Shown here in pieces: positions 10,368-52,898 of a stretch of 64,000 nt of DNA. The notes below the pieces were generated by a model. That model was not told the DNA's origin. It was given only the letters and a program-made list of their open reading frames with translations, and searched no databases. Position numbers and translations under genes: made by a program. The DNA comes from Bacteroidota bacterium (lineage in GTDB: Bacteria; Bacteroidota; Bacteroidia; J057; JAJTIE01): contig JAHBTG010000004.1 in NCBI GenBank assembly GCA_019638695.1, positions 3,233-67,232 of the forward strand, read 5' to 3'. Each line of letters starts with the position of its first letter. Position 1 is the first letter of the stretch.

Positions 10368-10438
10368 GAGTGATACGCTCCATAGCGAAATAGGACAGCG
10401 GCGGAGGACTCTCCCCATAAAGCCGCCTTAATTAAATT

Positions 10439-23372: not shown

Positions 23373-23395
23373 TGCCTGGGAAGGAAGTTATATCC

Positions 23396-26145: not shown

Positions 26146-26156
26146 AGTAGTAGGGT

Positions 26157-29698: not shown

Positions 29699-30078
29699 GG
29701 CTTTACCTCCAGTTTAATGGGTGGCACGGCAGGCACATGAAGGCCCAGCGAATCTGCCATTTCCAGGATGGCGGACTGGCGGCGGTTTTTGGCCAGGTTA
29801 GCATTCAGGGTATTGTATTCGCTCTCCAGCTCCCGCACCTGTTGAGAAAGCGCATCTGCCTGGCGGGCATGCCGTTCTGCCCGGTGGGTATTCCAGATAT
29901 AGATGATCCCCATCAACGTGAGAAAAGCAGCAAAGACCAGGTTTCGCTCCAGTACTGTAAGCCAGCTGACGCCTTTGTCACTAAAGCGATACAAACCATT
30001 GAGCACACGGATGCGCTTGCGGCGGCGTTCCACCTGCTTCGCCTCGGCTTTCTTCTGTATGAAACGGTTCTGCTTCAT
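29695..30078 (-). CDS. ftsL: FtsL-like cell division protein
   Basis: 127-aa bitopic protein (TM NLVFAAFLTLMGIIYIW followed by a coiled coil) located between rsmH and ftsI, with 4-nt overlaps on both sides. Confidence 0.7.
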   Translation of the reverse strand: MKQNRFIQKKAEAKQVERRRKRIRVLNGLYRFSDKGVSWLTVLERNLVFAAFLTLMGIIYIWNTHRAERHARQADALSQQVRELESEYNTLNANLAKNRRQSAILEMADSLGLHVPAVPPIKLEVKP

Positions 30079-33753: not shown

Positions 33754-33778
33754 GGTACCTGATCCTGGAAATTGAATT

Positions 33779-36402: not shown

Positions 36403-39400
36403 TTAGCGAATAAGGGTAACAGTGCCTTCGTAAAAAATAGGTTCACCTGTGATGCGAATAATCTTGGCCTTGTAGGTATAGGTGCCCGGGTCAAACGGCT
36501 TTCCGGTATCAGTGTTGCCATCCCAACCATCGCGTGCATCGGTTTCAAAAACTTGGTTTCCCCAACGGTCGAAGATACGAATATATTCTACGCGGGGATT
36601 AGCATTCACCGGCACAGGACGAAAACGGTCATTTACACCATCTCCGTTGGGAGTAAAAGCCGTAGGAAAGAAATATTCTTCTTCCTTAATCTCCACATAA
36701 TCTGTAAGGATCAGGAGATCCTGGCATTCCTGGCCAGAACCATCGTCCTGCAGTTCTCTGACCAGCTGAATGACGGTGTATTTACCCGGACGGGTATAAC
36801 GGATCTGGGGATTCAATACATCCGTCTGGATATTCCGCGGGTTCAGAGTATCTCCAAAATACCAGAAGATACTGACAGAATCTCCAGGAGTGCGTGTATA
36901 AGTACTCACAAACTGGATGGAAGGCTCCAGGATGGAAGTTACCGGCAAAGGCGCTACACCGGGAGGCAATGGATTCGTATCCGAACCGCCCAAGGCCGCC
37001 TCACGGGCTTTGGGATAAGCATAAAACCCGGACTGCGGAGGATTAGAGGCCCAGACGGTATCTTCTATTAATGAAGTACAACCGGTATTGGGGTTAAAAC
37101 ACTCCAGCACATACACATGAAACCCATAGTTATTGACCGGGAAAGTTACGGTATCCGCATTAGGGAACTGGCTGGGGTTCACTATCCAATACTGGCTACG
37201 CAGGGCGGGCGGTGTAGCCAGGAGATTGGCCAGCGTGGTACGGTACCACACTCTGTTGACGCATTCCGGTATCGGCGGAGAAGAGATGAAATAATCATCA
37301 AACAGCCCGCAAAGATCCGGCGCATTCAGGGTGGGTAAGGTTGTGGGCAATACCGTCACGGTATATTGGGTGGTATTGCGGCATCCATTGGCAGTAGTAG
37401 CGGTTACCACATAAGTCGTGGTCATCAGAGGCCTCACGACCGGATTAACGGGATCAGTCACATCAAAGGGTTGCGGAGTCCAGGCGACATTGGTGAAGGT
37501 ACCCGCAGGGAACTGAGAGAGGGATAAAGTCACGGGATCTCCGGGGCAGATATCGGTAACCACAGAAGGGGTAATCGACATCAGGTTACCCGGCTGCACA
37601 TTGATGAGAATAGTATCCAGGAAAGTACAATTACTGGTGGGTTCAAAAATAAGCACGTCATACCGGCGCGTTACCAGGGGTATGGCACGTATACTGTTGG
37701 CAGTAATGAACTGGAAATCCGAACCCACCCAATTATACTGGGTACCTCCCATGGCGGTAATCACCACAGTATCTCCCAGGCAGATGGTAATATCCTTGGA
37801 TGCAGGCGTAACAATACCTGCAGGCAATAACCCTTTCACAAAGACTGTTTGCGGATAATCCACCGAATCCCCGGGGCAATCTGCCGTACCCACCCGCCAG
37901 GTAATGACCACATCCTGGTTAGCATCTGCCGCTACGGACTGGTAGCTGGCATTGGCATTTATATTATTGGGATGGAAAGTACCTCCTCCGGAAGTATACC
38001 ACCGCCCTGAACCCACTGTAGCAAAGGCATTCAGCGGACCAGTGGAAGAATTGGTACAGATCGTATCCGGCGCATCTGTAAAGCCGCCATGTGGGATAGG
38101 GAACTTGGGCATGACACGGCAATAATCTACGCTATCGCAGACCCCATTGCCCACACGCCAGCACAGGAAAACAGGCACAGTTTCATCTGCAGGCACACTC
38201 AGGTACTGTGCATTGGGGTTATTGATACCTCCCACAAATGAGCCAAAGCCGGTAGTTGTCCAGCGCCCACCTCCACTATAAGTTTCTGCACTCAAAGGGA
38301 TTGTCAGATCTCCCAGGCATACAGTGGAAATGACCGTATTCATAGCCCCATCGGGCAAGGTATCCACCTGGAGAAAACGGGAATAGGAAACCGGGGGACA
38401 GGTGCCATTCTGCACGGTCCATACCAGTTCTACGGTTTGTCCGCCATCAGAAGAAACTGAGATATAGCGGGAATTTCCATCTGAAGTGGGTGTAGTGAAA
38501 CCGCCATGGCAGTTGTTACAGCTCCAGGAACCCACTCCGACATTGGCCACAGCGCCCAGCGGGATGCTGGCCTGCCCGGCACAGATAGTAGGAAGTACCG
38601 TAGCAAAAACACCATCAGAAGGCTCAAACACCTGGACATTCTGTGTATAAGTCACCACAGGGCAGGCATTCTTGACCACATTCCACTCCAGGGTCACAAT
38701 GTTGCCGCCATCTCCCAGCAAACTTTGATACTGCGCATTAGGCGCATTGCTATTTGGGATAAAGCTACCGACACAATTAGAACAACTCCAGTAACCGGTT
38801 CCTTCAAAGGCCTGACCGATCAGGGGTATGGTCACATCTCCCGCACAGATATTCCCGGGGTTGCTGGAGAACGCCCCCAATGGGGTCTTGGAGATATACA
38901 GCTTACGGTCAAAATTAAGGTCGGCACATAACCCGCGCGATACCGTCCACGTCAGGGTAACCGAGTCTATCCCATTACCCACAGCGCTCAAATGCACATA
39001 ACGGGCATTAGGATCATTAGGAGCAGGGTTGCCCGCCGCATCTACAAATAAGCCCGTGCCGCTGCTGGACCAGGTACCAATAGCCGGTGGCACCGCCGGA
39101 GAGGGAGGAGCGAATGTGGCATTGAGGGGCACAGTAGTATCACCCTCGCAAATGGTGTCCGGGGCAAACGCAGCAAAGCTGCCCGTCAGCGAAACGTTCA
39201 GAGCTTCAACTACACGCAGGTTTGTATCTTCTACACAGGTAGGGCCATTATTCACTATCCAGTAGAGATTGATAAAATGACCCGCATCTGCCACATCGCT
39301 CAGGTAATAGGCATTGGGATCATTGGGAGTGGGGTTTCCGTGTATATCCACAAAAGCCCCCAGGCCATTATCCGTTTCCCAGCGGCCCGTGCCCACCAGG

Positions 39401-42400
39401 ACAATAGCATTCAGCTGGGCAGAATAGCCTCCTGCACAGAACGGAGGGATATTGGTAGTAAAAGCACCTACCGGGGGCTGCACCACATTGACATACTGGC
39501 GTTGAGTATCGGGCGGACAATTTGTACTTTGGGTGATCCATCTGAGTTCAACAGTAGAAGCCGCATCCCCCGGCCCGGGAATATACCGGGTAGAAGTTCC
39601 GGTAGGATTTGAGAAGACCCCTGTACCATTGGAACGCCAGTGCCCTGTAGTACCCGGAGCAGCCGTGGCAGAAAACACATCCGTCTGGGAACCGGCCAGG
39701 AAGCAGACATCCGGCGGACCGGCTGCAAATACCCCGGCAGGCCGGCAGGAAACCGTCAGATTCTGCTGAAACACACCGGGAGGGCATCCGCCGGTAGTCA
39801 CCTCCCATCGCAGGACGGTGGTACCGCAATAGCCGGGATTAGGTGTAAAGGTAGCATTGGGGTCCAGCGGGTCAGAAAAAGCACCATTGGCATTCGCCAG
39901 CCACACGCCGGTATTGCCGGGGCCGGCATAAGCCCCCAACGGAGCCGTAATCCCCCCCTGGCAAATGGTAGTGGGTGCCGTGGCAAAGCTGCCATCTACC
40001 ACACTATTATTGACAAAGAAGGATTGCGTAGTCGTCACGCACCCGCAACCCGGCTCGCAGACCCGCCACTGCAGGACAATGACCTGGTTGGCATCTGCCA
40101 GCACAGAAGTATAGAACGCATTGGGGTCCGAAGGATCCGAGATCGCACCCTGGCCCGTATAAGCGCTGCCATTGGGCAGCAGGCTCCACGTGCCGGTACC
40201 CACAGTACCCACCACGTTAAAGGGGGTGGTAGAAGAACCACTGCAGATATCGGCAATGGGGTCTATAGTACCTGCTACAGGCGTTTGGCCCACATCCAGC
40301 ACATGGATAATCGTATCGGGGTCACAAGGACTATTCTGGACAATCCAGGCGATGGTTACCTGTTCGGCTACACCCGGCACCGGTGTGTAGCTGGCGCTGT
40401 CATTCAGCGGATTATCAAAGAACGTTCCGGCATGCGGGCCCAATACTTCAAAATGTCCCCGGCCAAATACCCGGATACCGAAGAAACGGGCAGGAGTAGG
40501 ACTGGTAGAACAAATGGGTGTTAAGGGGCCTACAAAGTAGCCAAGCGGCTGGCGATTGACCCGAATCATATTCTCCAGGACAAGCGGCGTACAAGCCCCC
40601 TGGGTCACTGTATAGGTAAGGGTAATATCCAGGCCGGCATCTGCCAATACAGACTGATAGTAGAAATCAGGACCTATCTGCACGATACTGCCCCCGCCAT
40701 TATGCGAATAAGCTCCGGTACCTACATAAGCAACCCCGCCGAGAGGACCTACCAGGTCTTCTGCACATACCGTATCCGGCGTAATCGGGGGGAAAGCCCC
40801 GTCTACCACAGGAACCAGCACATTCAGCGTCTGCTGGTACACCGCAGGGGCACATACGCCATTGGTGACCGTCCAGATAAGATCTACTGTACTCCCCGAG
40901 TTACTGGGGTGCGTAATATACCGGGCGTTAGGGGTAGTGTTATTGGGAGTAAAATACCCCAGCGAGCCCACACTGGGCACAGCAGTCCACACTCCCGTAC
41001 CCCTGATGGCAGTTGCTCCCAGGTGACCGGTAGAGCCGCCCGCGCACACATCCGAAGGGGTGGAGGCAAACGTACCCAAAGACGGCGCATAAATATAGAC
41101 CTGGCGCTCCAAGACTATGGGCGTACAGGTACCGGAAGTAATCACATAGTAGAAGGTAACCAGTGCCTCCCCAGTACCCATATCCGTAAAGGTAGCATTG
41201 GGGGCATTCAAACTGGGCAAAAAGATACCCGGGCGGGAGGTTGTCCAGAATCCGGTACCAGTCACCAGCGTCGCACCCAATGGGGCCGAAACGCCAGCCT
41301 GGCACATCAGCACCGTATCTGCGGGCATACTACCCGAGGGCAAACCGGCGTGCTGCACAAATTGCACGTCCCCGCTATCTACACGACAGCCTTCGGTAAT
41401 AAGCACACGGTAATAAGCAGAAGCCGCCAGCGAAGGGATCGTATAGATGGGGGAAGTCTCACTGGCAATATCCGACCAGGTTATGGCATCAGGGGAAACC
41501 TGCCATTGCAGGGACGCAGACGTGCCTGTATAGGTCAGGACAGGGCTGGTTCCGGTGCAAAAGATGCCCGCACCGGAGGTAATGCCGCGATCCGGGGCCA
41601 CGGTCACATCCACAAACACCACGTCAGAAGTATCCACACAGGTAAATCCTGCAGTGCTCACCACCAGGGCATAATAAGTGGGCGCCACCAAAGGTTCGGT
41701 ATACAATACAGGAGAGCTGTTAAAGCCCACACCCGTACTCACATGCGTCCAGGGTCCTGTAACGGAGGGACCGCTAATCCAGTATAACGTATCTCCCAGG
41801 AAACTTCCCACATAGACCACGGCAGATTCTCCCGTGCAGACACTGGTATCCGCACTGGCAGGCCCGGCAATCGCATTACACAGGTTCAGGAACACCAGCA
41901 ACGTATCATCCTGGAAACAACCGGTAACCGGGTTGGTAAGCCGGACCACCACCGTATCCGTAAGTGACGGATCACTCAGTGCAGAAGTAAAGTCAATGGC
42001 GGGAGATACAGCCGTGGGATTGGAAATCCCTGCTGCGGAGCCATTGCGGGTCCATGAAATATCCATTCCTGCTGCATTGGCCACAGAATAAGGCTGGGCC
42101 AGCGCCGGGATCACCAGCAGCTGCGGGCCGGAGGCTACGGGAACTGGCAGGGGATTGACCGTAAGGGTTAACACATTGGCAGCCGTATCCGAACAGCCAT
42201 TCGCGGTGGTGGCAATTACCGTATAGTTACCCTGGATATTGGTTACCAGGCTCACCCCGGTTTCACCCGGAATGGGAAAATTATTGCGCAACCATTGGTA
42301 ACCCGTATAGGTGGCATCAGAGGCCGTAAGTGTAACCGTGGCGTCTTCGCAAATGGTCAAAGGATCTGTGGTGGTTACCGTAAAAGCAGGCAGGCTATGC

Positions 42401-43965
42401 ACGGTGATAGGGAAGTTTTGCAAACATCCGCCGCCATAATCCACGGTGACCACATCCACCAGGTCTGCCCCAGAGGCATTCATACCCGGGATAAAAAAAG
42501 CACTGCTGCCCGGGCTGCCGATAATACTGGCTCCGCTCAGGTTAGTGGAAATACTCCAGTTACTGGCCGCAATCCCCGTATTCAACAAAACAGCCCCACC
42601 GTCGGGACAGGCGGTATTAGCTCCTGTTATGGGATTATTAGGGTATACGGTAATCAGCAGTGTATCCGCGCAGGTAGCACTTGTTGCAATGAGCGTATCC
42701 ACCCGAACACTGAGTGGCAGGCCAAAAGTCACCTGGGTAATCAACGCGGGATTACCGCCCGTAACCCCGGAGGGTGTGCCCCCCACCCCGGAAAGAATCG
42801 TCCATGTAGGTGGCACAGAACCCGCCACTTCATACTGGACAATAGAATCTCCGCAAACCTGCAGTGCCGGTGTCACAAACTCTGGCCGCTCCTGCACCTG
42901 CACAAATATCGTATCCGTCCGGCCACAAGGGAACGGACTGGTCAACACAATGGTATCCAGCTGGCCTGCAAGCGTATTAGGGAAAACCACATCGATAAAA
43001 GGTGTACCCGTGGTAAACGGACTGACGATTGCACCCCCATTCAGCACCTGCCAGTCAGCAGGGCCGCTTGCCACCAAACGGACAGGCAATTCTGCACATA
43101 CCGGCTGCGGAGCCACAGCGGTAGTTAGATCAAAAGGAGGTAAAGCGCTTACCAACGACACAGGAGTCACAGAAAAGACCACCGTATCGCGGCAGCTTCC
43201 TAGTGAAAAGATGAGCGTATCATTGGCAGGCACCAGTGCATTGCCCAGGTCCACATACACGGTATCCGTACTCAGCGGATTACCGGTCAGCGCATCAAAA
43301 GCAGTACCATGCGGACTAATAATGCTCCAGCTGCCTACGGCATTCCCCCAAAGCTTCAGCACAGGTTCGTCTGCACAGAAGGCAAAGTTACCGCTAGGAT
43401 TGGTGATCCGTGCACCCGCCAGGGCAGGCAATGGCGGAACAAACACAGCCTGAGGCTTGATGTCATTTGAAGCGTAATCCAGGATAACCCCGGAGTTCAC
43501 ACGCCAGCTAATGTGGCTGGCCCTGTTGCAGTCCTTCTGGATAATGAATATGCGGGCCACCCGGGTGCGGGTAGCCGTCACATTAATACCAGGCCCGGCA
43601 TTGGTGGGGACCACACTCAGGTTAAGAAAATTAAAAGTACCGCCAATCTCCAGAGGGAAATAAGAGTCGGGAGGCGCCACACCCGACCAAGGGCCTGCGA
43701 CAAGAATCCCTTTATCGGAAATATCGAGCAAACTGGTATCAATGTTAATGACAAAGTTTGCGGCACCCAGCGCAAAATCAGGACCGGATGCCTTCTGAAT
43801 ATAGACATCCAGGAACAGCGTATCTGCCCCGCCTTTAACCTGCTCTACTTCCAGCCTGTAATCCTGTGCATAGAGCCGCGGCCCTGCAAGTCCACTCATA
43901 AACCATATGCCCAGCAATAAGAGCCAAGGGGCAAACCAGCTTAACCTGAGAGGGAAACGCAACAT
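36403..43965 (-). CDS. giant secreted protein (2520 aa): cohesin-like N-module, >=13 Cys-containing Ig-like repeats, PKD-like region, T9SS type B C-terminal domain
   Basis: Start placed at the ATG at 43965 (MLRFPLRLSWFAPWLLLLGIWFMSGLAGPRLYA signal peptide). The track start at 44052 adds a non-signal extension. C-terminus FPTAFTPNGDGVNDRFRPV...IRIFDRWGNQVFET...GWDGN...PGTYTYKAKI matches the type B CTD. The N-module is homologous to those of the 756-aa and 1485-aa neighbours. Confidence 0.9.
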   Translation of the reverse strand: MLRFPLRLSWFAPWLLLLGIWFMSGLAGPRLYAQDYRLEVEQVKGGADTLFLDVYIQKASGPDFALGAANFVINIDTSLLDISDKGILVAGPWSGVAPPDSYFPLEIGGTFNFLNLSVVPTNAGPGINVTATRTRVARIFIIQKDCNRASHISWRVNSGVILDYASNDIKPQAVFVPPLPALAGARITNPSGNFAFCADEPVLKLWGNAVGSWSIISPHGTAFDALTGNPLSTDTVYVDLGNALVPANDTLIFSLGSCRDTVVFSVTPVSLVSALPPFDLTTAVAPQPVCAELPVRLVASGPADWQVLNGGAIVSPFTTGTPFIDVVFPNTLAGQLDTIVLTSPFPCGRTDTIFVQVQERPEFVTPALQVCGDSIVQYEVAGSVPPTWTILSGVGGTPSGVTGGNPALITQVTFGLPLSVRVDTLIATSATCADTLLITVYPNNPITGANTACPDGGAVLLNTGIAASNWSISTNLSGASIIGSPGSSAFFIPGMNASGADLVDVVTVDYGGGCLQNFPITVHSLPAFTVTTTDPLTICEDATVTLTASDATYTGYQWLRNNFPIPGETGVSLVTNIQGNYTVIATTANGCSDTAANVLTLTVNPLPVPVASGPQLLVIPALAQPYSVANAAGMDISWTRNGSAAGISNPTAVSPAIDFTSALSDPSLTDTVVVRLTNPVTGCFQDDTLLVFLNLCNAIAGPASADTSVCTGESAVVYVGSFLGDTLYWISGPSVTGPWTHVSTGVGFNSSPVLYTEPLVAPTYYALVVSTAGFTCVDTSDVVFVDVTVAPDRGITSGAGIFCTGTSPVLTYTGTSASLQWQVSPDAITWSDIASETSPIYTIPSLAASAYYRVLITEGCRVDSGDVQFVQHAGLPSGSMPADTVLMCQAGVSAPLGATLVTGTGFWTTSRPGIFLPSLNAPNATFTDMGTGEALVTFYYVITSGTCTPIVLERQVYIYAPSLGTFASTPSDVCAGGSTGHLGATAIRGTGVWTAVPSVGSLGYFTPNNTTPNARYITHPSNSGSTVDLIWTVTNGVCAPAVYQQTLNVLVPVVDGAFPPITPDTVCAEDLVGPLGGVAYVGTGAYSHNGGGSIVQIGPDFYYQSVLADAGLDITLTYTVTQGACTPLVLENMIRVNRQPLGYFVGPLTPICSTSPTPARFFGIRVFGRGHFEVLGPHAGTFFDNPLNDSASYTPVPGVAEQVTIAWIVQNSPCDPDTIIHVLDVGQTPVAGTIDPIADICSGSSTTPFNVVGTVGTGTWSLLPNGSAYTGQGAISDPSDPNAFYTSVLADANQVIVLQWRVCEPGCGCVTTTQSFFVNNSVVDGSFATAPTTICQGGITAPLGAYAGPGNTGVWLANANGAFSDPLDPNATFTPNPGYCGTTVLRWEVTTGGCPPGVFQQNLTVSCRPAGVFAAGPPDVCFLAGSQTDVFSATAAPGTTGHWRSNGTGVFSNPTGTSTRYIPGPGDAASTVELRWITQSTNCPPDTQRQYVNVVQPPVGAFTTNIPPFCAGGYSAQLNAIVLVGTGRWETDNGLGAFVDIHGNPTPNDPNAYYLSDVADAGHFINLYWIVNNGPTCVEDTNLRVVEALNVSLTGSFAAFAPDTICEGDTTVPLNATFAPPSPAVPPAIGTWSSSGTGLFVDAAGNPAPNDPNARYVHLSAVGNGIDSVTLTWTVSRGLCADLNFDRKLYISKTPLGAFSSNPGNICAGDVTIPLIGQAFEGTGYWSCSNCVGSFIPNSNAPNAQYQSLLGDGGNIVTLEWNVVKNACPVVTYTQNVQVFEPSDGVFATVLPTICAGQASIPLGAVANVGVGSWSCNNCHGGFTTPTSDGNSRYISVSSDGGQTVELVWTVQNGTCPPVSYSRFLQVDTLPDGAMNTVISTVCLGDLTIPLSAETYSGGGRWTTTGFGSFVGGINNPNAQYLSVPADETVPVFLCWRVGNGVCDSVDYCRVMPKFPIPHGGFTDAPDTICTNSSTGPLNAFATVGSGRWYTSGGGTFHPNNINANASYQSVAADANQDVVITWRVGTADCPGDSVDYPQTVFVKGLLPAGIVTPASKDITICLGDTVVITAMGGTQYNWVGSDFQFITANSIRAIPLVTRRYDVLIFEPTSNCTFLDTILINVQPGNLMSITPSVVTDICPGDPVTLSLSQFPAGTFTNVAWTPQPFDVTDPVNPVVRPLMTTTYVVTATTANGCRNTTQYTVTVLPTTLPTLNAPDLCGLFDDYFISSPPIPECVNRVWYRTTLANLLATPPALRSQYWIVNPSQFPNADTVTFPVNNYGFHVYVLECFNPNTGCTSLIEDTVWASNPPQSGFYAYPKAREAALGGSDTNPLPPGVAPLPVTSILEPSIQFVSTYTRTPGDSVSIFWYFGDTLNPRNIQTDVLNPQIRYTRPGKYTVIQLVRELQDDGSGQECQDLLILTDYVEIKEEEYFFPTAFTPNGDGVNDRFRPVPVNANPRVEYIRIFDRWGNQVFETDARDGWDGNTDTGKPFDPGTYTYKAKIIRITGEPIFYEGTVTLIR
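37850..41400 (-). repeat. array of >=13 coding repeats of about 91-95 aa (C...PL.A....GTG.W....G.F.....PNA.Y.S...D.G..V.L.W.V..G.C)
   Basis: I found 13 clear occurrences of the (P/A)NAxY / xxSRY core in register (NAPNATF, TPNARY, DPNAFY, DPNATF, TSTRY, DPNAYY, DPNARY, APNAQY, GNSRY, NPNAQY, ANASY, ...). Boundaries are approximate. Confidence 0.7.
43432..43863 (-). other. cohesin-like N-terminal module, copy in the 2520-aa protein (aa 35-178)
   Basis: DYRLEVEQVKGGADTLFLDVYIQKASGPDFALGAANFVINID...TATRTRVARIFI...ISWRV. Clearly alignable with 50348-50863 and more distantly with 48044-48550. The fold assignment is inference from the pattern only. Confidence 0.5.
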
Positions 43966-44053
43966 TGGGGAGTTAGCTATGCAAGTTGAAGTAGTTCTTA
44001 TCTTGAAATGGAGCGTAGTAGTCAGGGCAAATTTGGAGAAAAAACAAACCAAA

Positions 44054-44152: not shown

Positions 44153-47100
44153 TTAGGGATTAGGCACACTGGTAATCCGCAGGTCATTGTTATTGGTTCT
44201 GACAATCGTCACATCAAAAGCGTTCAGATCACCATCCAGTGACGCATCGGTTTGTGTGTACACATTAGAGGGGTTGCTTATAGCAGCCACGCGGGTGCGG
44301 AAAAAGTCTGCGGCATTCACCTCTCCTACATCATTAAACACAGCATTGTCATAGACGTTGCCCGCCAGCATCGCATACACAACATAGGCCGGGGCTGCGT
44401 TCCTATTGATAATGGCCACTGCAGGCGTCAGACCGGGATCCTGGTAGTAGTTCGCAGGGTTATTGAATGACCAGCTGCTGGGCACCACGCTATTCAGGGG
44501 TACGGCTACACTGGACATGATGGGCAGGTGGTTTTTATGACGCACCACGATATAGTAGTTGCCATCAGGATTGCCATCGCAGAAGTTTACAGCAGGGTTA
44601 GTTGCCGTAGCAAAATCACGCACACTACCGTCTGCCATCAGCCACGCATAGGCGGAATCAATAGCGGGCCCTGTGGCGGAAGAACGAATCTCCAGCTTGA
44701 GCACATCCACCGCATCTATAGGCAGGGACGCCATAACGGTATTGCTATCAGCAGGCTGTACAAACCCGGTAGGATCCAGTGCGGGGCTGCCATCTCCAAA
44801 GACATCCGTCAGCAGCGTATACGTACTGTTCAGCAGCGCAAAGTTCATCGGCACCGAACCAGTAGTGTCTATACAACCTTCCATAAAGACGGTAAGCTCC
44901 ACACCCAGGCCGGTCGTTCTATTAATGACAACCGTATTGGCCATATCCTCTGTACAAGTGAAAGGAACGGTTCTTTGACCTGTAACGGTCACCGTAATAT
45001 TGCCGGATGCCGGGAACAGCGTCAATGGCAGCATCAGTACAGAGCCGTTACCAGGCGTAGAACTGGACAGCGGAGTGATTCCGTCAAAAGCGGTGTAGGA
45101 TACTCCGGCATCAGATGCCAGTATGCGAATGACAGGAGTATCGGTTCCGCAGAAGGAGGTATCCCCTTCCACTGTTTTGAGATCTACCCGGTTACTGGTG
45201 ATGACCAGGGTATCATACGTTACGCAGAAACCATCTGAAACCGACCACATCAGGCTATCGGGAGTGCCGGGCACAGAAGTGGTAGTAAAGAGAGAGTTCG
45301 GATCAGAAGGATCGGTCACTGTGAAGCCGGCTGTAATGGGCACCCAGGTACCTATATAAGGGCTGGTCACAGGCGTGGCATTCAGGGTGGTGTTGTCAGT
45401 ACAAATGTTCTGGTCGGCGCCGGCAGCAGCTACGGCAAAGTTCAGGGTCACATCATCCGAATGTGCCACAGAACAGCCGGGACCAGGGGCAGTTGTCTGC
45501 CAGCGGAAGACGTAGGTACCGGGCACATCAACCGTCACGGCTGTATTATAGGTGGAGTTGCCAGGGTTATAAGTGGGTGAGCCGGGGCCACTGACAAATA
45601 ACCAGTTGGCAGAGACTCCTAGCTGAGTCAAGGCATCCGAACCCTCAAGGGTAACAGAAAGACCGCAGATATTGGAATCAGGTCCTGCTGACACATAGTT
45701 AAACACAACGGTCACGTCATCAAACGGATGCGACACGCAGCCTAACGGCAAAGTACCGGTACTCTGCCAGCGCAAGGTATAGCTACCGGGAGTATCTACG
45801 GTAATCACAGAAGTAGGCGCAGTATCATTGGAGAATACAGGAGCTCCGCTGCCACCAGGGCTGGCAATTACAGACCACTGACCGCCGGAAGCACCGATGA
45901 TCGTGGGATCGAATCCTGCCAATCCAGCGGTGTTGGCATCACAAAGCACCAGGTCCGGTCCTGCCGTCACAAAGTTGAAGGTGATATCCACACTATCTAC
46001 AGGCGTACAAGCTCCCACCACGTTACCGGTCCAGTAGAAACGATAGGTACCGGGCACATCAACCGTTACACCTGAAACGGGACTGCTGGCATCAGTAAAG
46101 GTAGCGGTACCAAGACCTGAAACCTGACTCCAGGTACCAATGGTAACAGGTGCTATCAGCGCGGGGGCATCCATGATATACGTGGAATCGCAGACGGTCA
46201 TGGGTGAAGTACCCGCTTCTATGAAGGCAAAAGTTACTTCTATACTATCTTGGGCAGAACAAGCACCCATAGTAGCGCTCCAGTAGAACTTATAGGTACC
46301 GGCAATACTGACACTTACCGTGCTGGTTTCTGAGCCGGGAGTAGCGATGGTCGCCACACCAGGATTGCCTACAGCTGCGCTCCATACACCGCCGGTGACG
46401 GCAGTAGCGTCAAAGGTATAAGTGCTGTCATTACAGACTGCCACGGGAGTAGTACCGGCTTCTACAAAAGCAAAGGTTACTTCTACACTGTCCTGCACAG
46501 AGCAGGCACCTACAGTAGCACTCCAGTAGAACTTATACACACCGGGAGTATTGACACTCACGGTGCTAGTTTCCGAGCCGGGAGTAGCGATGGTCGCCAC
46601 ACCAGGATTGCTTACAGCTGCGCTCCATGCACCGCCTGTCAAAGGCTCGGCATCGAACGTGTAGGTACTGTCATTACAAACTGCTGCAGGGGTAGTACCT
46701 GCCTCAGCAAAGGCAAAGGTCACTTCTACGCTGTCCTGGGCAGAACAAGCACCTATAGTAGCGCTCCAGTAGAACTTATACACACCGGGAGTATTGACAC
46801 TCACCGTGCTGATTTCCGAGCCGGGAGTAGCAATGGTCGCCACACCGGGGTTGCCTACGGCTGCGCTCCATACACCGCCGGTGACGGCTGTAGCGTCAAA
46901 GGTATAGGTGCTGTCGTTGCAGACTGTTACAGGCGTAGTACCGGCTTCTACAAAAGCGAAATCAATCTCTACACTATCCTGGACAATACCGCAAGGTACG
47001 CCTGCATTGTACCCCCAGTAAAACTTATAGAGACCGGGCGTATTGACACTCACGGTGCTATTATACAGGTTCACATCTGTGATAGTGGCCACACCGGGGT

Positions 47101-48610
47101 TACCTACTGCTGCGCTCCATACACCGCCGGTGACGGCAGCAGCTTCAAAGGTATAGGTACTGTCGTTGCAGACTGCTATAGGAGAGGTGCCGGCTTCTGC
47201 AAAATGGAAGGTTACCAGCAGGCTATCCTGAACAAGGCCGCAGCTGCCTACTGTGGCATCCGTTCTCCAGTACAGTTTATAAGTACCCGGGATAAGCGCT
47301 CTAGCCACAGAGGTCGGAGAAGCCGGGGTGTCAAAGCTGACGTTTATGGGGTCTTCAGCAACCCATATGCCACCGACGCCTAATGACACAGCCACCGGAT
47401 CTGCATAGAGTATAAGGGAATCGGCCCCACAGACCACGGAATCTCCACCGGCTTCGGTAAATACAAAGGTCAGGTCCACACTGTCTACCAATGACAGCGG
47501 AGGATCTGCCGTCCAGTAGGCACCATACGTACCGGCCGGGAAGCCCGGAGCCACACTTACAGAAGAAGTAGGACTAGTGGACGCAGCAAATAACAGGCTG
47601 CCAGGAGGATTTGAAGACCATGTTCCGGGAGAAACTACTATTGTGGAAGACGCATCCAGCAAAGTATAGGGACCAGCGCTACCACAAAGGGTATCATTGA
47701 TCAACGGAAAATCAATGGCCCAGAGCTGGGAAGTCACTACAACCGTATCTGTGTATACGCAACCATTGGCGGTTACGGTATATGACCATACCAGAGTATC
47801 GGCCAAGCCTCCGGCACCCAGGTTCCTGACGATGGAAGTAGGTGAAGAAGGTGTATCAAAAGTAGCCGTACTGGCACCGTGTGCACTCCATAATCCGGTC
47901 TCGCCGGTCATCAGCGGTTCGGCATAAAGCTCGAGCGTATCCACATAAATGGTGGAATCTATACCTGCGCTACGTTCCAAACGGGTAGAAAGCGGGGCAT
48001 CTGAGGTGCGGGCAACCGTAACGACAATAGGTGTTGAAATGGTCTGATGGATCAAAAAAACAGGATTCCCGAAACCGTCATCATCCCAGGAACCGATGGT
48101 ACCGGCAATCACAAACTGCGGGTTAATGTCCACTTCGCAATAAGGAGTTGCTGCAGCCCTGGCGTATATCGTACCAATCTTGACGGTATCATTCAGCAGG
48201 AACTGGTTGGGAGTGGGAATGGTGCCCGGAGAAGGGTACACATAGCTCTTGATAAACCGGACGATCAGGCGCCGGGAGAGTGAACTGACGCTCAGCACCA
48301 TGGGTTCATAGGGAACCGCGGGGTTAAACTCCCAGTCTGAAGTACCATTAAGGCGAGAGCCGGTGGTATCGACCAGCCTCGCACCCACACCATTACTGAT
48401 GGCAGCCCAGTCTGCAACGGTGAATTCAATGGGAATATCACCACTACCGATTTCAAGCGGCGTGGCCTGTTTGTTGATAATGAAGATATCAAACAAGAGC
48501 GAATCTGCGCCACCGCGGCGCTTCTCCATTCTTATCTCGTAGTTATATGATTGGGCAAACACATTAGCGCCCAATAATATGAACAGCATAGCGACGAGTA
48601 TCCTTTTCAA
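44153..48610 (-). CDS. giant secreted protein (1485 aa): cohesin-like N-module, many Ig-like repeats, dockerin-like C-module, no recognisable T9SS CTD
   Basis: TTG start at 48610 (plus strand ...tccttttcaa), giving the signal peptide MKRILVAMLFILLGANVFAQ. The repeated AGxxxxVCxxSTYxxxA...GGxWS...GxxTxxxxxSxTSxVSVxxPGxYKFYW module fills most of the protein. The last 250 aa are homologous to the C-terminus of the 646-aa protein. Confidence 0.88.
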   Translation of the reverse strand: MKRILVAMLFILLGANVFAQSYNYEIRMEKRRGGADSLLFDIFIINKQATPLEIGSGDIPIEFTVADWAAISNGVGARLVDTTGSRLNGTSDWEFNPAVPYEPMVLSVSSLSRRLIVRFIKSYVYPSPGTIPTPNQFLLNDTVKIGTIYARAAATPYCEVDINPQFVIAGTIGSWDDDGFGNPVFLIHQTISTPIVVTVARTSDAPLSTRLERSAGIDSTIYVDTLELYAEPLMTGETGLWSAHGASTATFDTPSSPTSIVRNLGAGGLADTLVWSYTVTANGCVYTDTVVVTSQLWAIDFPLINDTLCGSAGPYTLLDASSTIVVSPGTWSSNPPGSLLFAASTSPTSSVSVAPGFPAGTYGAYWTADPPLSLVDSVDLTFVFTEAGGDSVVCGADSLILYADPVAVSLGVGGIWVAEDPINVSFDTPASPTSVARALIPGTYKLYWRTDATVGSCGLVQDSLLVTFHFAEAGTSPIAVCNDSTYTFEAAAVTGGVWSAAVGNPGVATITDVNLYNSTVSVNTPGLYKFYWGYNAGVPCGIVQDSVEIDFAFVEAGTTPVTVCNDSTYTFDATAVTGGVWSAAVGNPGVATIATPGSEISTVSVNTPGVYKFYWSATIGACSAQDSVEVTFAFAEAGTTPAAVCNDSTYTFDAEPLTGGAWSAAVSNPGVATIATPGSETSTVSVNTPGVYKFYWSATVGACSVQDSVEVTFAFVEAGTTPVAVCNDSTYTFDATAVTGGVWSAAVGNPGVATIATPGSETSTVSVSIAGTYKFYWSATMGACSAQDSIEVTFAFIEAGTSPMTVCDSTYIMDAPALIAPVTIGTWSQVSGLGTATFTDASSPVSGVTVDVPGTYRFYWTGNVVGACTPVDSVDITFNFVTAGPDLVLCDANTAGLAGFDPTIIGASGGQWSVIASPGGSGAPVFSNDTAPTSVITVDTPGSYTLRWQSTGTLPLGCVSHPFDDVTVVFNYVSAGPDSNICGLSVTLEGSDALTQLGVSANWLFVSGPGSPTYNPGNSTYNTAVTVDVPGTYVFRWQTTAPGPGCSVAHSDDVTLNFAVAAAGADQNICTDNTTLNATPVTSPYIGTWVPITAGFTVTDPSDPNSLFTTTSVPGTPDSLMWSVSDGFCVTYDTLVITSNRVDLKTVEGDTSFCGTDTPVIRILASDAGVSYTAFDGITPLSSSTPGNGSVLMLPLTLFPASGNITVTVTGQRTVPFTCTEDMANTVVINRTTGLGVELTVFMEGCIDTTGSVPMNFALLNSTYTLLTDVFGDGSPALDPTGFVQPADSNTVMASLPIDAVDVLKLEIRSSATGPAIDSAYAWLMADGSVRDFATATNPAVNFCDGNPDGNYYIVVRHKNHLPIMSSVAVPLNSVVPSSWSFNNPANYYQDPGLTPAVAIINRNAAPAYVVYAMLAGNVYDNAVFNDVGEVNAADFFRTRVAAISNPSNVYTQTDASLDGDLNAFDVTIVRTNNNDLRITSVPNP
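44156..44905 (-). other. shared C-terminal module with dockerin-like tandem Ca-loop motifs, copy in the 1485-aa protein
   Basis: FMEG...VDVLKLEIR...AYAWLMADGSV...YYIVVRHKNHLPIMS...AGNVYDNAVFNDVGEVNAADFFRTRV...TDASLDGDLNAFDVTIVRTNNNDLRITSVPNP(stop). The second loop DASLDGDLNAFD fits the EF-hand/dockerin DxxxDGxxNxxD pattern. Confidence 0.5.
46200..47210 (-). repeat. four near-identical tandem coding repeats (period about 243-249 nt) inside the 1485-aa gene
   Basis: For example, the 37-nt string GAGCCGGGAGTAGCGATGGTCGCCACACCAGGATTGC occurs at 46332 and again at 46575 (243 nt apart). The protein units (E)AGTTPV(T/A)VCNDSTYTFDATAVTGGVWSAAVGNPGVATIATPGSE(I/T)STVSVNTPGVYKFYWSAT(I/V)GACS(A/V)QDSVEVTFAF are almost identical. 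Confidence 0.85.
48044..48550 (-). other. cohesin-like N-terminal module, copy in the 1485-aa protein (aa 21-189)
   Basis: SYNYEIRMEKRRGGADSLLFDIFIINKQATPLEIGSGDIPIEFTV...DTVKIGTIYA. This is the most divergent of the three copies. Confidence 0.4.
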
Positions 48611-48673: not shown

Positions 48674-50944
48674 TTAGCGCTCCAGTTCAATCAGTTTGCG
48701 GGTTGCCGTAACGTCATTGACACGCAGCACCACAGTGTAGGTACCAGCGCTTACCGATTGGAGACGAGACCCAAACTCATAGGTATAGGTACCTGCAGGC
48801 AGCGTACCGTCCTGCAGAGCCGCCACACGGGCGCCCAGGAGGTTGTAGACTTCCAGCGTGATCTCAGCAGACCTATCCAGTGTAAGATAGAGTCCGGTTT
48901 TACCCACAAACGGGTTAGGATAAGCCTGGAATCCAACGCCCTCGGCAGCCAGATCGCGGTTGGTGAGGCTCACCACCACAAAGTCTGAGGTAGCGGCGCC
49001 GCAATCATTAGTAGCCGTCACCGTGTAATTGCCGGATTGTGTAGCCACCAGCATGTTGGTATTGGCGCCATCGATCAGAATACCGTTATGGAACCATTGG
49101 AGATTGCCCGGGGCATTCGTAGTCAGCAGGTTATCCGTTGCCTGAATAACCGGCTGAACAGGTTGAGGGGTGATCTGTACGGTAATAGCGGTAGAACGCT
49201 CTGAGATACAGTTGCCATCCTTGCTGGATGCACGATAGATACCTTCTTCTGTAACCAGGAGCTCACTGTCCGTATTCGTCATGATATTACCGTTCTGGTA
49301 CCATACATGTGTACCGGTAACGCTGGAAGAAAGCATGAGGTTTTCGTTCTCGCACACTTCTACAACACCGTTACTTACAGTGCGGCTGGCAGAAACTTCG
49401 GGAGCGGCCACACTGCGCTCGGCAATGACAGCCGCATTAGAGGTAGAGGAAGCGCATCCGCCGTCCATCATCACAGCAGTATAGGTACCGGGCTGGGTAG
49501 CTACAAAATCAGCACCTGCGCCATTGATGGACTGGCCGTTGCGATACCAGGCATGCACACCCGTCCGGTTACTGCTAATGGTAATTTGCTCGCCCTGGCA
49601 GATCTCGCTTGCGGCAGCCGCAATTTCAGGTGTCTCCAGCACAGCAGTGCGGATAGTAATGGTGGCAGGCTGGGTGTTGCAATCTGTAATGGCCTCGGCA
49701 CGGTATACACCGGGCTGAGCCACTATGAGCTGGGTACCGCTGGACTGCACCAGGCTATTATCCTGGTACCAGCGGTGGTTGCCCGAAAAGTCGGAGGTAA
49801 TGGTTACCGTCTGTCCGGAGCAAATCACACCCGCTGACGAAGCAGACAGGTTGGGATTCACATTATCTACGATGCTAACCGTAACCGGATCTGAAGCCGT
49901 AGACTGACAGTTGCCGTTCACACTCACCACAGTGTACGTACCGGCCTGGTTGGCCACCAACTGGTTACCTGACCCTGTAATAACCTGGCCGTTGCGATAC
50001 CAGATGTGCGTACCTGATTTGTTAGAATTGAGCGTAACCGAAGAAGAAGCGCAGATCTGAGTGGCGCCGGCAGCAGAAAGTTCCGGAGTCTCTGCGGTGC
50101 TGTAAGCGAGGTCCACCATCTGAGAGACCTCGGAACGGCAGGAGTAGAACATCGATACCGCAGTATAGGTACCGGGCTGGGTAGTTACCAGCTCATTTTC
50201 AGAGGCGCTGGGGATCAGCTCGCCATTGCGGTACCATTCATGAGGACCGGCATAGTTCGAAGTAAGTTCAAAGCTCTCACCCGGGCAAACAGCAGTGCCG
50301 CCAGAAGCCAGCTGAGGCACGGCAGGCTTGTAACACAGCGGAAAATCGGGTGCAGGGTTCACGTAATCGCCATTGGATTTGATATCAGAGTAGATGTACT
50401 CTGTGATCATATTACCGGAGCCGGGATTAAAAGGATCTTCTACCGTGCGGGTCTCCCATTTCATCACAGCAGTAGGAGCCACCCGCCATGTGGTGGTCGT
50501 AAACCCGCTATGATCGGTTACGGGGATCACCAAACGCCCCACACGGGTGCGGGTAGAAGTGACCATAGCACCCAATGTCTTGTCATCAGGGGTTTTATGC
50601 AACGTATTCAGTACCACGTAGTTAGTCCCGTTACCTTTGGAAAGGGACTCATAATGAGCGGGCATGGTCTGCACATGCCAGGGCCCGCTCTTGGTAAAGT
50701 CAATAGAAGTGGAAGGCAGATTGAGATAATTCTGATTGACAAAGAGGGAGAAGTTGCAGGCAGCCAGTGCAAAGTCCGGCCCGCTGGTTTTCTGGATATA
50801 GATATCTACATTCAGTTTTCCTGGCTCAACAGACTGCTCCACTTCCATGCGGAAGAACTTGTTTTGAGCAAAAACCTGATTGAGCGCCAGCAGGCAGCAA
50901 AGTGCCGTGAGCAAAGCAAATGAGGCGATACGTTTGCGCAACAT
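48674..50944 (-). CDS. secreted protein (756 aa): cohesin-like N-module, six Ig-like C..W(Y/F)xNG repeats, T9SS type A C-terminal sorting domain
   Basis: Start placed at the ATG at 50944 (MLRKRIASFALLTALCCLLALNQVFAQ), 13 nt after the upstream stop; an alternative ATG at 50974 overlaps the upstream gene. There are six repeats such as TQICASSSVTLNSNKSGTHIWYRNGQVITGSGNQLVANQAGTYTVVSVNGNCQSTAS. C-terminus YPNPFVGKTGLYLTL...LEVYNLLGARVAAL...GTYTVVLRVNDVTATRKLIELER matches the type A CTD. Confidence 0.88.
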   Translation of the reverse strand: MLRKRIASFALLTALCCLLALNQVFAQNKFFRMEVEQSVEPGKLNVDIYIQKTSGPDFALAACNFSLFVNQNYLNLPSTSIDFTKSGPWHVQTMPAHYESLSKGNGTNYVVLNTLHKTPDDKTLGAMVTSTRTRVGRLVIPVTDHSGFTTTTWRVAPTAVMKWETRTVEDPFNPGSGNMITEYIYSDIKSNGDYVNPAPDFPLCYKPAVPQLASGGTAVCPGESFELTSNYAGPHEWYRNGELIPSASENELVTTQPGTYTAVSMFYSCRSEVSQMVDLAYSTAETPELSAAGATQICASSSVTLNSNKSGTHIWYRNGQVITGSGNQLVANQAGTYTVVSVNGNCQSTASDPVTVSIVDNVNPNLSASSAGVICSGQTVTITSDFSGNHRWYQDNSLVQSSGTQLIVAQPGVYRAEAITDCNTQPATITIRTAVLETPEIAAAASEICQGEQITISSNRTGVHAWYRNGQSINGAGADFVATQPGTYTAVMMDGGCASSTSNAAVIAERSVAAPEVSASRTVSNGVVEVCENENLMLSSSVTGTHVWYQNGNIMTNTDSELLVTEEGIYRASSKDGNCISERSTAITVQITPQPVQPVIQATDNLLTTNAPGNLQWFHNGILIDGANTNMLVATQSGNYTVTATNDCGAATSDFVVVSLTNRDLAAEGVGFQAYPNPFVGKTGLYLTLDRSAEITLEVYNLLGARVAALQDGTLPAGTYTYEFGSRLQSVSAGTYTVVLRVNDVTATRKLIELER
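50348..50863 (-). other. cohesin-like N-terminal module, copy in the 756-aa protein (aa 28-199)
   Basis: NKFFRMEVEQSVEPGKLNVDIYIQKTSGPDFALAACNFSLFVNQ...TSTRTRVGRLVI...TTWRV. Closely alignable with 43432-43863. Confidence 0.5.
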
Positions 50945-50957
50945 ATAGTTAGTGGGA

Positions 50958-52898
50958 TTAATTCTTAGGTGCATTGGAAATACGCAGTTGGCGAGAGTTG
51001 AAGCTGGTGATAGTCATGTCGCTGCTATTGGAATAGCCATCGAAGCGGACATCGATCTGCTGGTAGATCTGGTCTCCTGCAAGCAGGTTGTTAGCCACCC
51101 GCTGGCGGAAGAAGTCGGCAGAGTTCACCTCATCTTCATCATTAAAGATCAGGTTATCATACACGTTGCCACCTATCATGGCATAAGCCCCGGGATTCAC
51201 AAATACCAGGTTATTGTTAGCAACATTGCCCAGCACGGACAAGTCCAGAGATACCGGCGTAGTACTCAAGGTATGGGCGCTTGCGGTAATAATGGAGATG
51301 TGGTTACGGTGGCGCACAACCACGTTGTAGCTACCGGCGCCTACTCCGCAAAACATAAGGTGATTCCCTCCTGCATTACCGGAGAAGAACGGCTGCACAC
51401 TGCCATCAGACATTACCCAGGCGTAGCAGGTATCCAGCTTGGCGGTAGGCGGATTGGGCCAGAGCTCTACTTTGATGACGTCCACCGCACCGGCAGGAAC
51501 GGCCACGTCACGATACATCTTGGGAACCGGCTGGCCGTTATACAAGGCAACCGGGCTCGTTTCGGAGTACATACTGTCCAGCAAACTGGAATAGCTGGTA
51601 GTGCTGATCTTGTTAAGCGTATCGGACATATCTCCCTCAACCGTACGATACGCACCTTCCAGGTACACCTTTATATCCAGCCGGACACTTTCATTGACTG
51701 TGACAAGCACACTGGAACTGGTATCTCCCAAACAACCCGTGTTGGAGATCGTCCGTAAGGCAAAGTGAGTGGGCGTAGGCTGCCCGGGTATAATACCGGG
51801 GCTATAGAACACGTCAGAAGTCTGGCCAGGCACGTCTGCCCAGGTAGAACCGCCGTCCGCGCTGAGAATCCACTGCAAGTCGGCAGTGGGATCATATCCG
51901 GTAGCTTCCAGGCGAATAGTATCCACCTCGCAAATGCTAGAAGCAGAGATAACTGCCGCCGTACCCGCAGGGGAAGCGCATGCCCCAAAGGCGTAATAAC
52001 CCAACTGAATAGGGTTGAAGGCATTGTTCACTCCTATATAATAAGGAGGGGAACCATTCTGATAGAAATCATTCCCCATGGAACCATATGGCTGCACACC
52101 ATCCGGACTATACACGATATGCGTAGAAGGAATCTGCGCAGGAGAGATGCCGGAGGAAAACTTAAGTTCTATATCCCCCGCATCGTTATAGGTACCTCCG
52201 AAAGCAGAGATCCGCCAGTGGTGGTCCGGAAATACGAGGCCCACCCCAGGACCGGGGTTATTGAGCGGGGGAGTAGCCAATGCTTCGGCCTGCACAAAAG
52301 TGCCTGCATCCGCCACAATAGAACCAAAGTTAATCTTCTTGGCCTCGGTAGCCGTACCCACAGGAAGAACTAATGAAGTATTATCTACATTAATGGCCAC
52401 AGGGCCAACCACCCAGCCATTGGCACCCAGGTCAATCGAAGGAGATACGGGTATTGTTCTGTCAAAAATGAGAAGATCCGAAGCGCTGCCATTGGTATAG
52501 ATCATGGCTTCCGGAGCATCCAGGGAAGAAAATACGCTCAGGGTATCCTGTACATGGAGAGAAGCCGTAGCAGGAGACTCCAGCACAAGGTATCCTACCG
52601 TGTCATGACCAGCAGCTTTATATAACAGATTGCCGGCACCGGTAAATCGTACGGCCACCTCATCCTCTGTATTGTGGCTAAGCCGCCCGTCATTACTAAG
52701 TGTATCGGCCAGGTACAGGCTGCCTTGCAGGAGCAGCTCGCCCCCGGTGGCTATCCCCACATTACCCGTTACATACACCTGTTCCCCATTGCGCACGGAA
52801 AGTACTCCTCCATTACCTACATGCAGGCGTGTCTGCCCCCATACCTGAAACGGGAGCAGCAAAACAGCAAGTAAGGAACCGTGAAGTAGTAGTCTCAT
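50958..52898 (-). CDS. secreted protein (646 aa) ending in the dockerin-like C-module, no recognisable T9SS CTD
   Basis: Signal peptide MRLLLHGSLLAVLLLPFQVWGQ; ATG at 52898 verified. The last 242 aa are homologous to the C-terminus of the 1485-aa protein. Confidence 0.85.
   Translation of the reverse strand: MRLLLHGSLLAVLLLPFQVWGQTRLHVGNGGVLSVRNGEQVYVTGNVGIATGGELLLQGSLYLADTLSNDGRLSHNTEDEVAVRFTGAGNLLYKAAGHDTVGYLVLESPATASLHVQDTLSVFSSLDAPEAMIYTNGSASDLLIFDRTIPVSPSIDLGANGWVVGPVAINVDNTSLVLPVGTATEAKKINFGSIVADAGTFVQAEALATPPLNNPGPGVGLVFPDHHWRISAFGGTYNDAGDIELKFSSGISPAQIPSTHIVYSPDGVQPYGSMGNDFYQNGSPPYYIGVNNAFNPIQLGYYAFGACASPAGTAAVISASSICEVDTIRLEATGYDPTADLQWILSADGGSTWADVPGQTSDVFYSPGIIPGQPTPTHFALRTISNTGCLGDTSSSVLVTVNESVRLDIKVYLEGAYRTVEGDMSDTLNKISTTSYSSLLDSMYSETSPVALYNGQPVPKMYRDVAVPAGAVDVIKVELWPNPPTAKLDTCYAWVMSDGSVQPFFSGNAGGNHLMFCGVGAGSYNVVVRHRNHISIITASAHTLSTTPVSLDLSVLGNVANNNLVFVNPGAYAMIGGNVYDNLIFNDEDEVNSADFFRQRVANNLLAGDQIYQQIDVRFDGYSNSSDMTITSFNSRQLRISNAPKN
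50961..51686 (-). other. shared C-terminal module with dockerin-like motifs, copy in the 646-aa protein
   Basis: KVYLEG...VDVIKVELW...CYAWVMSDGSV...YNVVVRHRNHISIIT...GGNVYDNLIFNDEDEVNSADFFRQRV...IDVRFDGYSNSSDMTITSFNSRQLRISNAPKN(stop). Confidence 0.5.

Follow-up and report, generated by a model that had tools for sequence, protein, structure and literature searches.

What is the C-terminal region that two large proteins of a Bacteroidota bacterium have in common, and does it serve to dock the proteins or to sort them? The proteins are encoded in a stretch of 64,000 nucleotides (assembly GCA_019638695.1, contig JAHBTG010000004.1, positions 3,233 to 67,232; this whole stretch is called the window here), both on the minus strand. 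Protein A (44153..48610, 1485 residues, TTG start) consists of a signal peptide, about 12 immunoglobulin (Ig)-like repeats and the C-terminal module, which takes up 44153..44914 (residues ~1233-1485 plus the stop codon) with a beta-sandwich followed by a dockerin-like two-helix domain. Protein B (50958..52898, 646 residues) has a signal peptide, an N-terminal region, an Ig-like domain and the twin module at 50958..51686 (residues ~405-646 plus the stop codon). We find that the module is real, belongs to a large and uncurated family, and is tied to type IX secretion system (T9SS) cargo through a conserved partner, encoded by the next gene, that carries an N-terminal domain of ~150 residues (N-domain) and a T9SS C-terminal domain (CTD); this points to a role in attachment and possibly in co-export. 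The reading that we favour, with a probability of roughly 55%, is that of a non-cellulosomal docking module of the X-dockerin type through which its protein is fastened to a T9SS-anchored partner.

The homology of the two C-termini, which an earlier note made from the sequence had proposed for 44156-44905 and 50961-51686 (the final ~250 and ~242 codons of the protein A and protein B genes), was borne out by BLASTP, giving one strong alignment between residues 1163-1484 of A and 344-645 of B (33% identity, E 9e-35). In tblastn exactly two copies of the module were found in the 64-kb window, matching each other at E ~2e-33. Because of the E-value of 9e-35 and the huge family described below, the similarity is far beyond chance, and a chance or low-complexity resemblance of the two tails was ruled out. 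The translations contained all of the motifs listed in the earlier note, i.e. (F/Y)(M/L)EG, VDV(L/I)K, YAW(L/V)M.DGSV, VVRH(K/R)NH, GNVYDN...EVN(A/S)ADFFR, D..(L/F)DG..N..D and LRI(T/S)..P before the stop. In module A the beta-sandwich holds VDVLKLEI, YAWLMADGSV and YYIVVRHKNHL, the dockerin-like two-helix part holds GNVYDN..EVNAADFFRTRVA and DASLDGDLNAFDVTIV, and the terminal tail reads NNDLRITSVPNP. The region shared by A and B is covered by no Pfam or NCBIfam model, and scans with both libraries agreed with the earlier view that neither protein carries a recognisable T9SS CTD.

The module is not private to one genome. An exhaustive search with a hidden Markov model (HMM) of the module, run against a library of 1.84 billion proteins that are themselves cluster representatives, returned 9007 representatives at E <= 1e-3 (2837 at <= 1e-10 and 66 at <= 1e-30), corresponding to a family of at least 9000 clusters at 50% identity; a word-indexed protein search gave two relatives only. 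Of the best 151 matches, 133 had a module ending no more than 5 residues before the C-terminus; with a limit of 20 residues the number rose to 143, i.e. ~95% of members, and C-terminal placement was also seen for the open reading frames (ORFs) of 87 fetched loci. The consensus of the family reads V.L.G.Y..M...L...P..AVDVI..ELR...AWLM.DGSIRDF.TG...F...G.Y..VV.HRNHL...S...D.T...N.YG.G...M.AGN....EVNA.D...V.....Y...D.NLDG.VNA.D....NND.LY.S.VP-stop, with the D in AVDV, W-L-x-D-G and H-R-N-H as near-invariant residues of the sandwich.

The passengers found N-terminal to the module in other members include Ig_7, fn3, PKD, FG-GAP, BNR, TIG, GH9 with CelD_N, M43 peptidase and laminin-G domains, and the architecture of protein B, with ~640 residues, recurs in many of them. 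Using a crude hydrophobicity screen, 53 of 95 members starting with Met passed as having a Sec signal peptide, many of the failures being sequences with an evidently incomplete N-terminus, and a single member looked like a lipoprotein. A module-only protein of 273 residues was also seen in Dyadobacter (gene 10001-10822 in loci L081, L082 and L083), where it ends an SpvB/RHS/YD-shell toxin locus, is preceded by several small unannotated ORFs and adjoins an integrase, unlike the adhesin cassettes.

As to the nature of the module, a profile of 35 members had as its best sequence matches in the PDB chains made up of an X module and a dockerin, at E 1.6e-5 to 8.5e-4 (5k39_B at 1.6e-5, 2b59_B at 1.8e-5, and 5g5d_B, 3kcp_A, 4wi0_B and 4u3s_B), followed by type I dockerins. 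The PDB dockerin matches spanned profile positions 149-222, which are the last ~75, at E 1.6e-5 to 3.8e-3. Pfam Dockerin_1 (PF00404) was matched by 11 of the 35 members (best 6e-6), an NCBIfam scan of the same 35 gave no match, and profile positions 1-148, comprising the beta-sandwich, were covered by no library model. An AlphaFold2 model made with the 35 sequences, used here in place of one made with a 4-sequence alignment only (pLDDT 36), reached a pLDDT of 85 and a pTM of 0.87, with a beta-sandwich at residues 5-185 and helices at 203-215 and 234-245. When this model was compared with the PDB using Foldseek, the top 8 matches were all dyads of an X module and a type II dockerin (E 6e-5 to 4e-4, prob 1.0), being moderate matches with TM scores normalised by target of 0.55-0.65 for those chains that have 156 residues and root mean square deviations of 5-8 Å, and all matches ranked below them had E > 0.03. 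On the strength of the PDB profile, Dockerin_1, AlphaFold2 and Foldseek results, the module is predicted to be a beta-sandwich/dockerin dyad with an X-dockerin-like fold, in which the last ~75 residues, judged by sequence comparison, are homologous to dockerins. The 'dockerin-like' option raised in the earlier note is thus supported.

Both of the tandem repeats that define a dockerin, each made of a 12-residue loop (D-x-[DN]-x-[DN]-G-x-x-[DN]-x-x-D) with a helix after it, are present at the family level. The consensus of loop 2, which is canonical, is D99-x-N69-x-D64-G88-x-V70-N61-x-x-D98 and that of loop 1 G94-(N/D)...V-N72-A-x-D100, with a Tyr conserved at 93% between the two, as in type II dockerins. 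In some subfamilies loop 1 is canonical (GDVNGDG..), and in the subfamily of the window it carries a 4-residue insertion. Loop 2 of module A (DASLDGDLNAFD) is near-canonical, with oxygen side chains at all five ligand positions, in keeping with the earlier proposal that the second loop fits the dockerin pattern and the first is degenerate. Binding by the module would presumably be calcium-dependent.

Among known systems the nearest is the dyad of X module and type II dockerin (XDoc) in scaffoldins of clostridial cellulosomes, such as Clostridium thermocellum CipA (PDB 2B59, 3KCP, 4FL4, 5G5D) and Acetivibrio cellulolyticus ScaA (4U3S, 4WI0). As in XDoc, a beta-sandwich stands directly before a C-terminal dockerin with two loop-helix repeats, the whole unit being placed at the C-terminus, and the homology in sequence runs from the last beta-strand through the dockerin, taking in both the ..M.AGD/N.. 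strand and the Tyr that precedes loop 2; XDoc structures were also the best and only significant fold matches of the module. In clostridial cellulosomes XDoc anchors a large protein to a receptor protein at the cell surface, and we propose that the module acts alike. It differs, however, in having a sandwich about twice as large (~180 vs ~90 residues) with an N-terminal extension and with WL.DG and HRNH motifs that are absent from X modules, to which the sandwich shows no sequence homology, the alignment with XDoc beginning at the last strand before the dockerin. The hosts of the module, moreover, are Gram-negative bacteria, its putative receptor is anchored by a T9SS CTD and not by S-layer homology domains, the receptor candidate encoded next to it is not demonstrably a cohesin, and the copies in the window have a degenerate first calcium loop.

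C-termini made of the sandwich only (HMM positions ~3-139, with no dockerin) were also seen, in loci L037, L062 and L064, with five such genes standing as a tandem array at 1043-12240 in L037; the sandwich is therefore an autonomous C-terminal domain. It could be that the sandwich binds a ligand such as a carbohydrate, lipopolysaccharide or a metal, with the dockerin-like helices forming a calcium-stabilised cap, so that the protein would be anchored to a glycan or substrate and not to another protein. The invariant polar residues of the sandwich (D, G and H-R-N-H) and the sandwich-only variants speak for such a function, as do the many module genes that have no adjoining partner gene and the secondary fold matches, which are to sandwiches of the transthyretin-like and the putative carbohydrate-binding kind (4iyk, 4fxt). 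With E > 0.03 these secondary matches are weak, however, and ligand binding leaves unexplained both the directional pairing with N-domain proteins and the co-occurrence with true cohesins that are described below; we regard it as distinctly unlikely.

A different question is whether the module, or its conserved tail (..L.I/Y.S.VP), is a sorting signal. Like the T9SS CTDs of type A (TIGR04183 / PF18962) and type B (TIGR04131 / PF13585), the module stands at the very C-terminal end of surface proteins exported by Sec, occurs in the same phyla and has many paralogous carriers per genome. Unlike these, it has no sequence match to either type, adopts another fold, can be internal or in tandem, and is sometimes followed by a true type A CTD. 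The type A and type B models gave no match in A, in B or in the 35 members, even at E <= 1, the last ~70 residues of the modelled module form a helical dockerin and not the all-beta sandwich of ~70-100 residues of a CTD, and no T9SS CTD structure was among the top 50 PDB fold matches. In proteins with tandem modules (P0006, P0008 and P0143) the internal copies keep the ..S/T-x-V/I-P tail with the next copy starting directly after it; the tail is therefore an element of the fold that needs no free C-terminus, is probably no sorting signal, and was rejected as a free-end sorting motif. A standard type A CTD follows the module in a few members, as in P0115, in which two modules precede Por_Secre_tail (Pfam, 1.3e-13), and a CTD-like FlgD_ig domain closes P0029; the T9SS signal, where present, is thus a separate domain placed after the module.

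These findings also bear on the idea that the module is a third type of T9SS C-terminal secretion signal, one that the translocon (SprA/PorV or a PorP-like protein) would itself recognise and that might be cleaved. Such a signal would be expected at the extreme C-terminus, where ~95% of members have the module, and in the T9SS-bearing phyla to which the family is limited; the passengers, moreover, are typical of T9SS cargo (Ig_7, PKD, fn3, FG-GAP, GH9, BNR), and A and B have signal peptides and no known CTD. The predicted fold and the missing CTD structures, the motif retained by internal copies, the separate terminal domains of P0115 and P0029 and the sandwich-only variants of L037, which end proteins with no dockerin at all, all argue the other way, and the conserved CTD-bearing partner encoded downstream suggests that the CTD is supplied in trans. 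We hold a third signal to be very improbable. The unrecognised export signal that had been suspected in the terminal residues is accordingly not supported as stated, whereas the suspicion of an attachment signal was right in spirit, the module being genomically coupled to partners with T9SS CTDs.

This coupling was evident from tblastn with a type A CTD, which in many loci placed such CTDs ~0.9-1.2 kb downstream of the module. The ORFs located there are homologous to each other, 35 of the 61 with at least 250 residues falling into one cluster, and their products share a signal peptide, the ~150-residue N-domain, an Ig/fn3-like domain (PLPVELSSF...NNYGF.VER) and Por_Secre_tail, which Pfam found in all six partners tested. 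Counting on both strands of loci extending 6 kb to each side of the module match, we found 34 of 42 N-domain ORFs on the strand of a module ORF and immediately downstream of it, with three of the others lying inside module proteins, two immediately upstream and three second in a downstream row, and none of the 42 on the opposite strand. Seen from the module, an N-domain gene follows directly after 33 of 93 module genes. The order of module gene and then N-domain/CTD gene is thus a conserved gene pairing. An N-domain also stands at the N-terminus of the module protein itself in at least 11 of the top 150, and such proteins could be adaptors or assemble head to tail. In the literature we found no description of the module family, of its beta-sandwich or of the pairing of module and N-domain, absence there being no proof.

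The window follows the rule twice, B being followed by a 766-residue protein and A by one of 2549 residues. When run with the speed filters off (--max; the matches are hidden under the default HMMER filters), the N-domain HMM matched only these two proteins in the window, at E 7.7e-9 and 1.8e-6, respectively. The two other T9SS cargo proteins, giants of 2680 residues (10439-18481, plus strand; 15 SprB repeats, PKD, P-domain and type B CTD) and 1863 residues (4408-9999, minus strand; type A CTD), gave no match with the N-domain HMM and therefore served as internal negative controls. The partner of B (48674..50974, minus strand) has a signal peptide, the N-domain, Ig_7-like repeats and a type A CTD. 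The first ATG of its gene overlaps the stop codon of protein B by 17 nt, and the true start is likely Met11, located 13 nt past that stop. Its N-domain, a candidate receptor of the module, spans 50426..50833 (minus strand, residues ~48-183; hhalign E 5.5e-4), and jackhmmer started from it converged on the partner family. The partner of A (36403..44052, minus strand), whose gene begins 100 nt downstream of protein A, has its N-domain at 43462..43860 (minus strand, residues ~65-197; phmmer E 1.4e-16), followed by a long passenger region and a type B CTD (CHU_C / TIGR04131). The two N-domains are 35% identical (E 2e-23), each beginning directly past the AQ site of the signal peptide. The last gene of the putative operon (35371..36396, minus strand) encodes a T9SS outer-membrane protein of the PorP/SprF family (PF11751, E 2.2e-35), which is the usual companion of type B CTD cargo. 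In L080, the closest relative found, the order of an A-like gene, a 2538-residue CHU_C protein with N-domain, PorP/SprF and PAS-SpoIIE is kept.

The loci, found with an alignment of four module sequences, also gave the host range. Within the Bacteroidota matches came from Chitinophagales, Saprospiraceae, Sphingobacteriales, Flavobacteriales, Cytophagales and Bacteroidales, and elsewhere from many Ignavibacteriota and from Rhodothermales, Calditrichia, Kapaibacterium and Cloacimonetes, showing that the module is confined to the Fibrobacteres-Chlorobi-Bacteroidetes (FCB) superphylum, i.e. Bacteroidota, Ignavibacteriota and allied phyla. A few matches came from bins with implausible taxon labels (Methanobacterium sp., L026; Chromatiales, L014 and L051; Hyphomicrobiales, L058; Terriglobia, L047). 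Since most of these contigs carry an FCB-type gene beside the module, being a partner with type A CTD in L026 and L051 and a gene with an N-domain of the partner family in L014, they are probably mis-binned.

Cohesins, the classical receptors of dockerins, occur together with the module: P0154 and P0146 each combine Pfam Cohesin and the module in one protein, and in L004, L018 and L051 genes for a signal peptide-cohesin-type A CTD protein, for a signal peptide-cohesin-module protein and for a CTD-bearing partner stand side by side. These three loci, from metagenome-assembled genomes (MAGs) of Ignavibacteriota and Bacteroidota, look like cellulosome-type clusters (L004 2116-7227, L018 2-7864 and L051 33-7616), and the proteins encoded there are large cohesin-dockerin-cohesin forms, with or without a type A CTD, signal peptide-cohesin-type A CTD proteins of 272-303 residues and signal peptide-cohesin-module proteins of 387 residues. 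In the six partners Pfam Cohesin gave no match at E <= 1, an HMM of FCB cohesins did not match the window, a word-indexed protein search with the P0154 cohesin domain returned nothing, and at the N-termini of A and B themselves no cohesin was found (PDB phmmer; Pfam at E <= 10).

Taking these results together, we propose that the module is a two-part docking unit, in which a sandwich of ~180 residues would be packed on a C-terminal dockerin of two F-hand repeats, each a loop and a helix. Proteins A and B would cross the inner membrane by Sec, as their class I signal peptides predict, and the C-terminal module would then bind the ~150-residue N-domain of the next-encoded protein, that of B binding the 766-residue and that of A the 2549-residue partner. 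Since the partners carry T9SS CTDs, of type A in the former and of type B with its own PorP/SprF in the latter, they should be secreted by the T9SS and held on the cell surface, and A and B, once docked, would be presented at the distal (N-terminal) end of that anchored protein.

Several results weigh against this docking. In the window copies loop 1 has, compared with canonical members, the 4-residue insertion mentioned above and lacks ligands at positions 1 and 5, loop 2 of module B (DVRFDGYSNSSD) is partly degenerate with an Arg at position 3, and these copies alone gave no match with Pfam Dockerin_1 (PF00404); against PDB sequences the window module alone reached just E 0.21, to 2vn6_B. 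About two thirds of module genes are not followed by an N-domain gene, and no neighbour is universally conserved, the contexts of P0157, P0164, P0166 and P0156 being unrelated to that of the window. The N-domain is not demonstrably a cohesin as judged by the profiles: a PDB profile search returned nothing, hhalign with five FCB cohesins gave a probability of 8% (E 0.004, colinear over 90 columns), and a cohesin HMM matched N-domains colinearly at marginal values (6e-4, 2e-3, 0.019 and weaker, to 0.3). Docking also does not account for the invariant HRNH/D/G cluster of the sandwich, nor for how a protein with no CTD crosses the outer membrane.

The crossing of the outer membrane would be explained if the module bound the N-domain of the partner already in the periplasm and the folded complex then passed the T9SS on the partner's CTD, making the module an export adaptor as well as an attachment device. 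In accordance with such hitchhiking, the genes of B and the 766-residue protein lie 13 to 17 nt apart, the pairs being tightly linked and probably translationally coupled, the order of module gene and then partner gene holds family-wide, the module proteins themselves lack an export signal (no CTD match), and the T9SS is known to move folded cargo. Joint passage of proteins of 1485 and 2549 residues would, however, be required, two thirds of module genes stand without an adjacent partner, and we know of no precedent for piggy-back transport through the T9SS; hitchhiking is accordingly a tentative idea that we judge unlikely. It is equally doubtful whether a two-gene 'dock and anchor' cassette, with a periplasmic complex in which the CTD-less protein rides the T9SS on its partner, is widespread among FCB bacteria.

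Returning to docking on an anchored partner, a further close counterpart is the system that was inferred for Ca. Stygibacter (Cloacimonadota) from MAGs (PMC8542988), in which enzymes bear dockerins and a cohesin scaffoldin carries a T9SS CTD, and non-cellulosomal dockerin and cohesin modules are known as such (Peer et al. 2009, as cited in PMC8542988). Common to the Ca. Stygibacter system and the present one are FCB proteins with a signal peptide and a C-terminal dockerin, a partner with a T9SS CTD, and a cohesin-dockerin logic outside cellulosomes. Here, however, a conserved beta-sandwich, which has no counterpart among the library models, is fused to the dockerin, the partner is the N-domain protein of the next gene, in one-to-one cassettes and not as one large scaffoldin, and the passengers in the window are Ig-repeat proteins resembling adhesins and not enzymes.

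With regard to wider use, predictions of T9SS secretomes now take only type A and type B CTDs into account, and the module marks at least 9000 clusters of Sec-exported proteins with adhesin or enzyme passengers and no CTD in Bacteroidota, Ignavibacteriota and relatives. If docking holds true, surface proteomes, adhesin tips and enzyme display would be assembled modularly in these bacteria as in cellulosomes, and current predictions miss a layer; if hitchhiking were true, the predicted T9SS secretome would grow by thousands of CTD-less proteins. The module and the partner N-domain are two uncurated domain families ready for HMM curation, the gene-order rule nominates binding pairs, and the two domains together are a candidate pair for orthogonal protein-protein docking, of use in surface display on Gram-negative hosts.

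Further details of the locus can be summarised as follows. The class I Sec signal peptides of A and B, read from the sequence, have their sites between ..LLGANVFAQ and S and between ..FQVWG and Q, respectively. Residues ~24-124 of protein A may be a divergent N-domain (a weak match, E 9e-4), and the N-terminal region of protein B had no library match. The gene of protein A contains a tandem array at 46208-47204 (243-nt period, 4.1 copies, 79% matches), the units of which are Ig-like repeats of ~81 residues (..VCNDSTYTFDA..GGVWSAAVGNPGVATIATPGSE.STVSVNTPGVYKFYWSAT..); the array looks recently expanded, and its length could vary. Just downstream of PorP/SprF, at 33223-35341 (minus strand), a 199-residue SUKH/SMI1-KNR4 immunity-like protein overlaps the end of the PAS-SpoIIE phosphatase gene. 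The genes at 22194-30974 (minus strand) look like a cell-division and cell-wall (dcw) cluster, the MraW methyltransferase at 30075-30974 being the sole gene checked, by Pfam, and the adhesin locus would therefore lie in the core chromosome rather than on an obvious island. Directly upstream of protein B, finally, an nSTAND1 NTPase is joined in one 1580-residue protein (53043-57785, minus strand) to a WD40 beta-propeller and, at the C-terminus, a LysM domain, an unusual architecture that gives a STAND signalling ATPase a peptidoglycan-binding tail.

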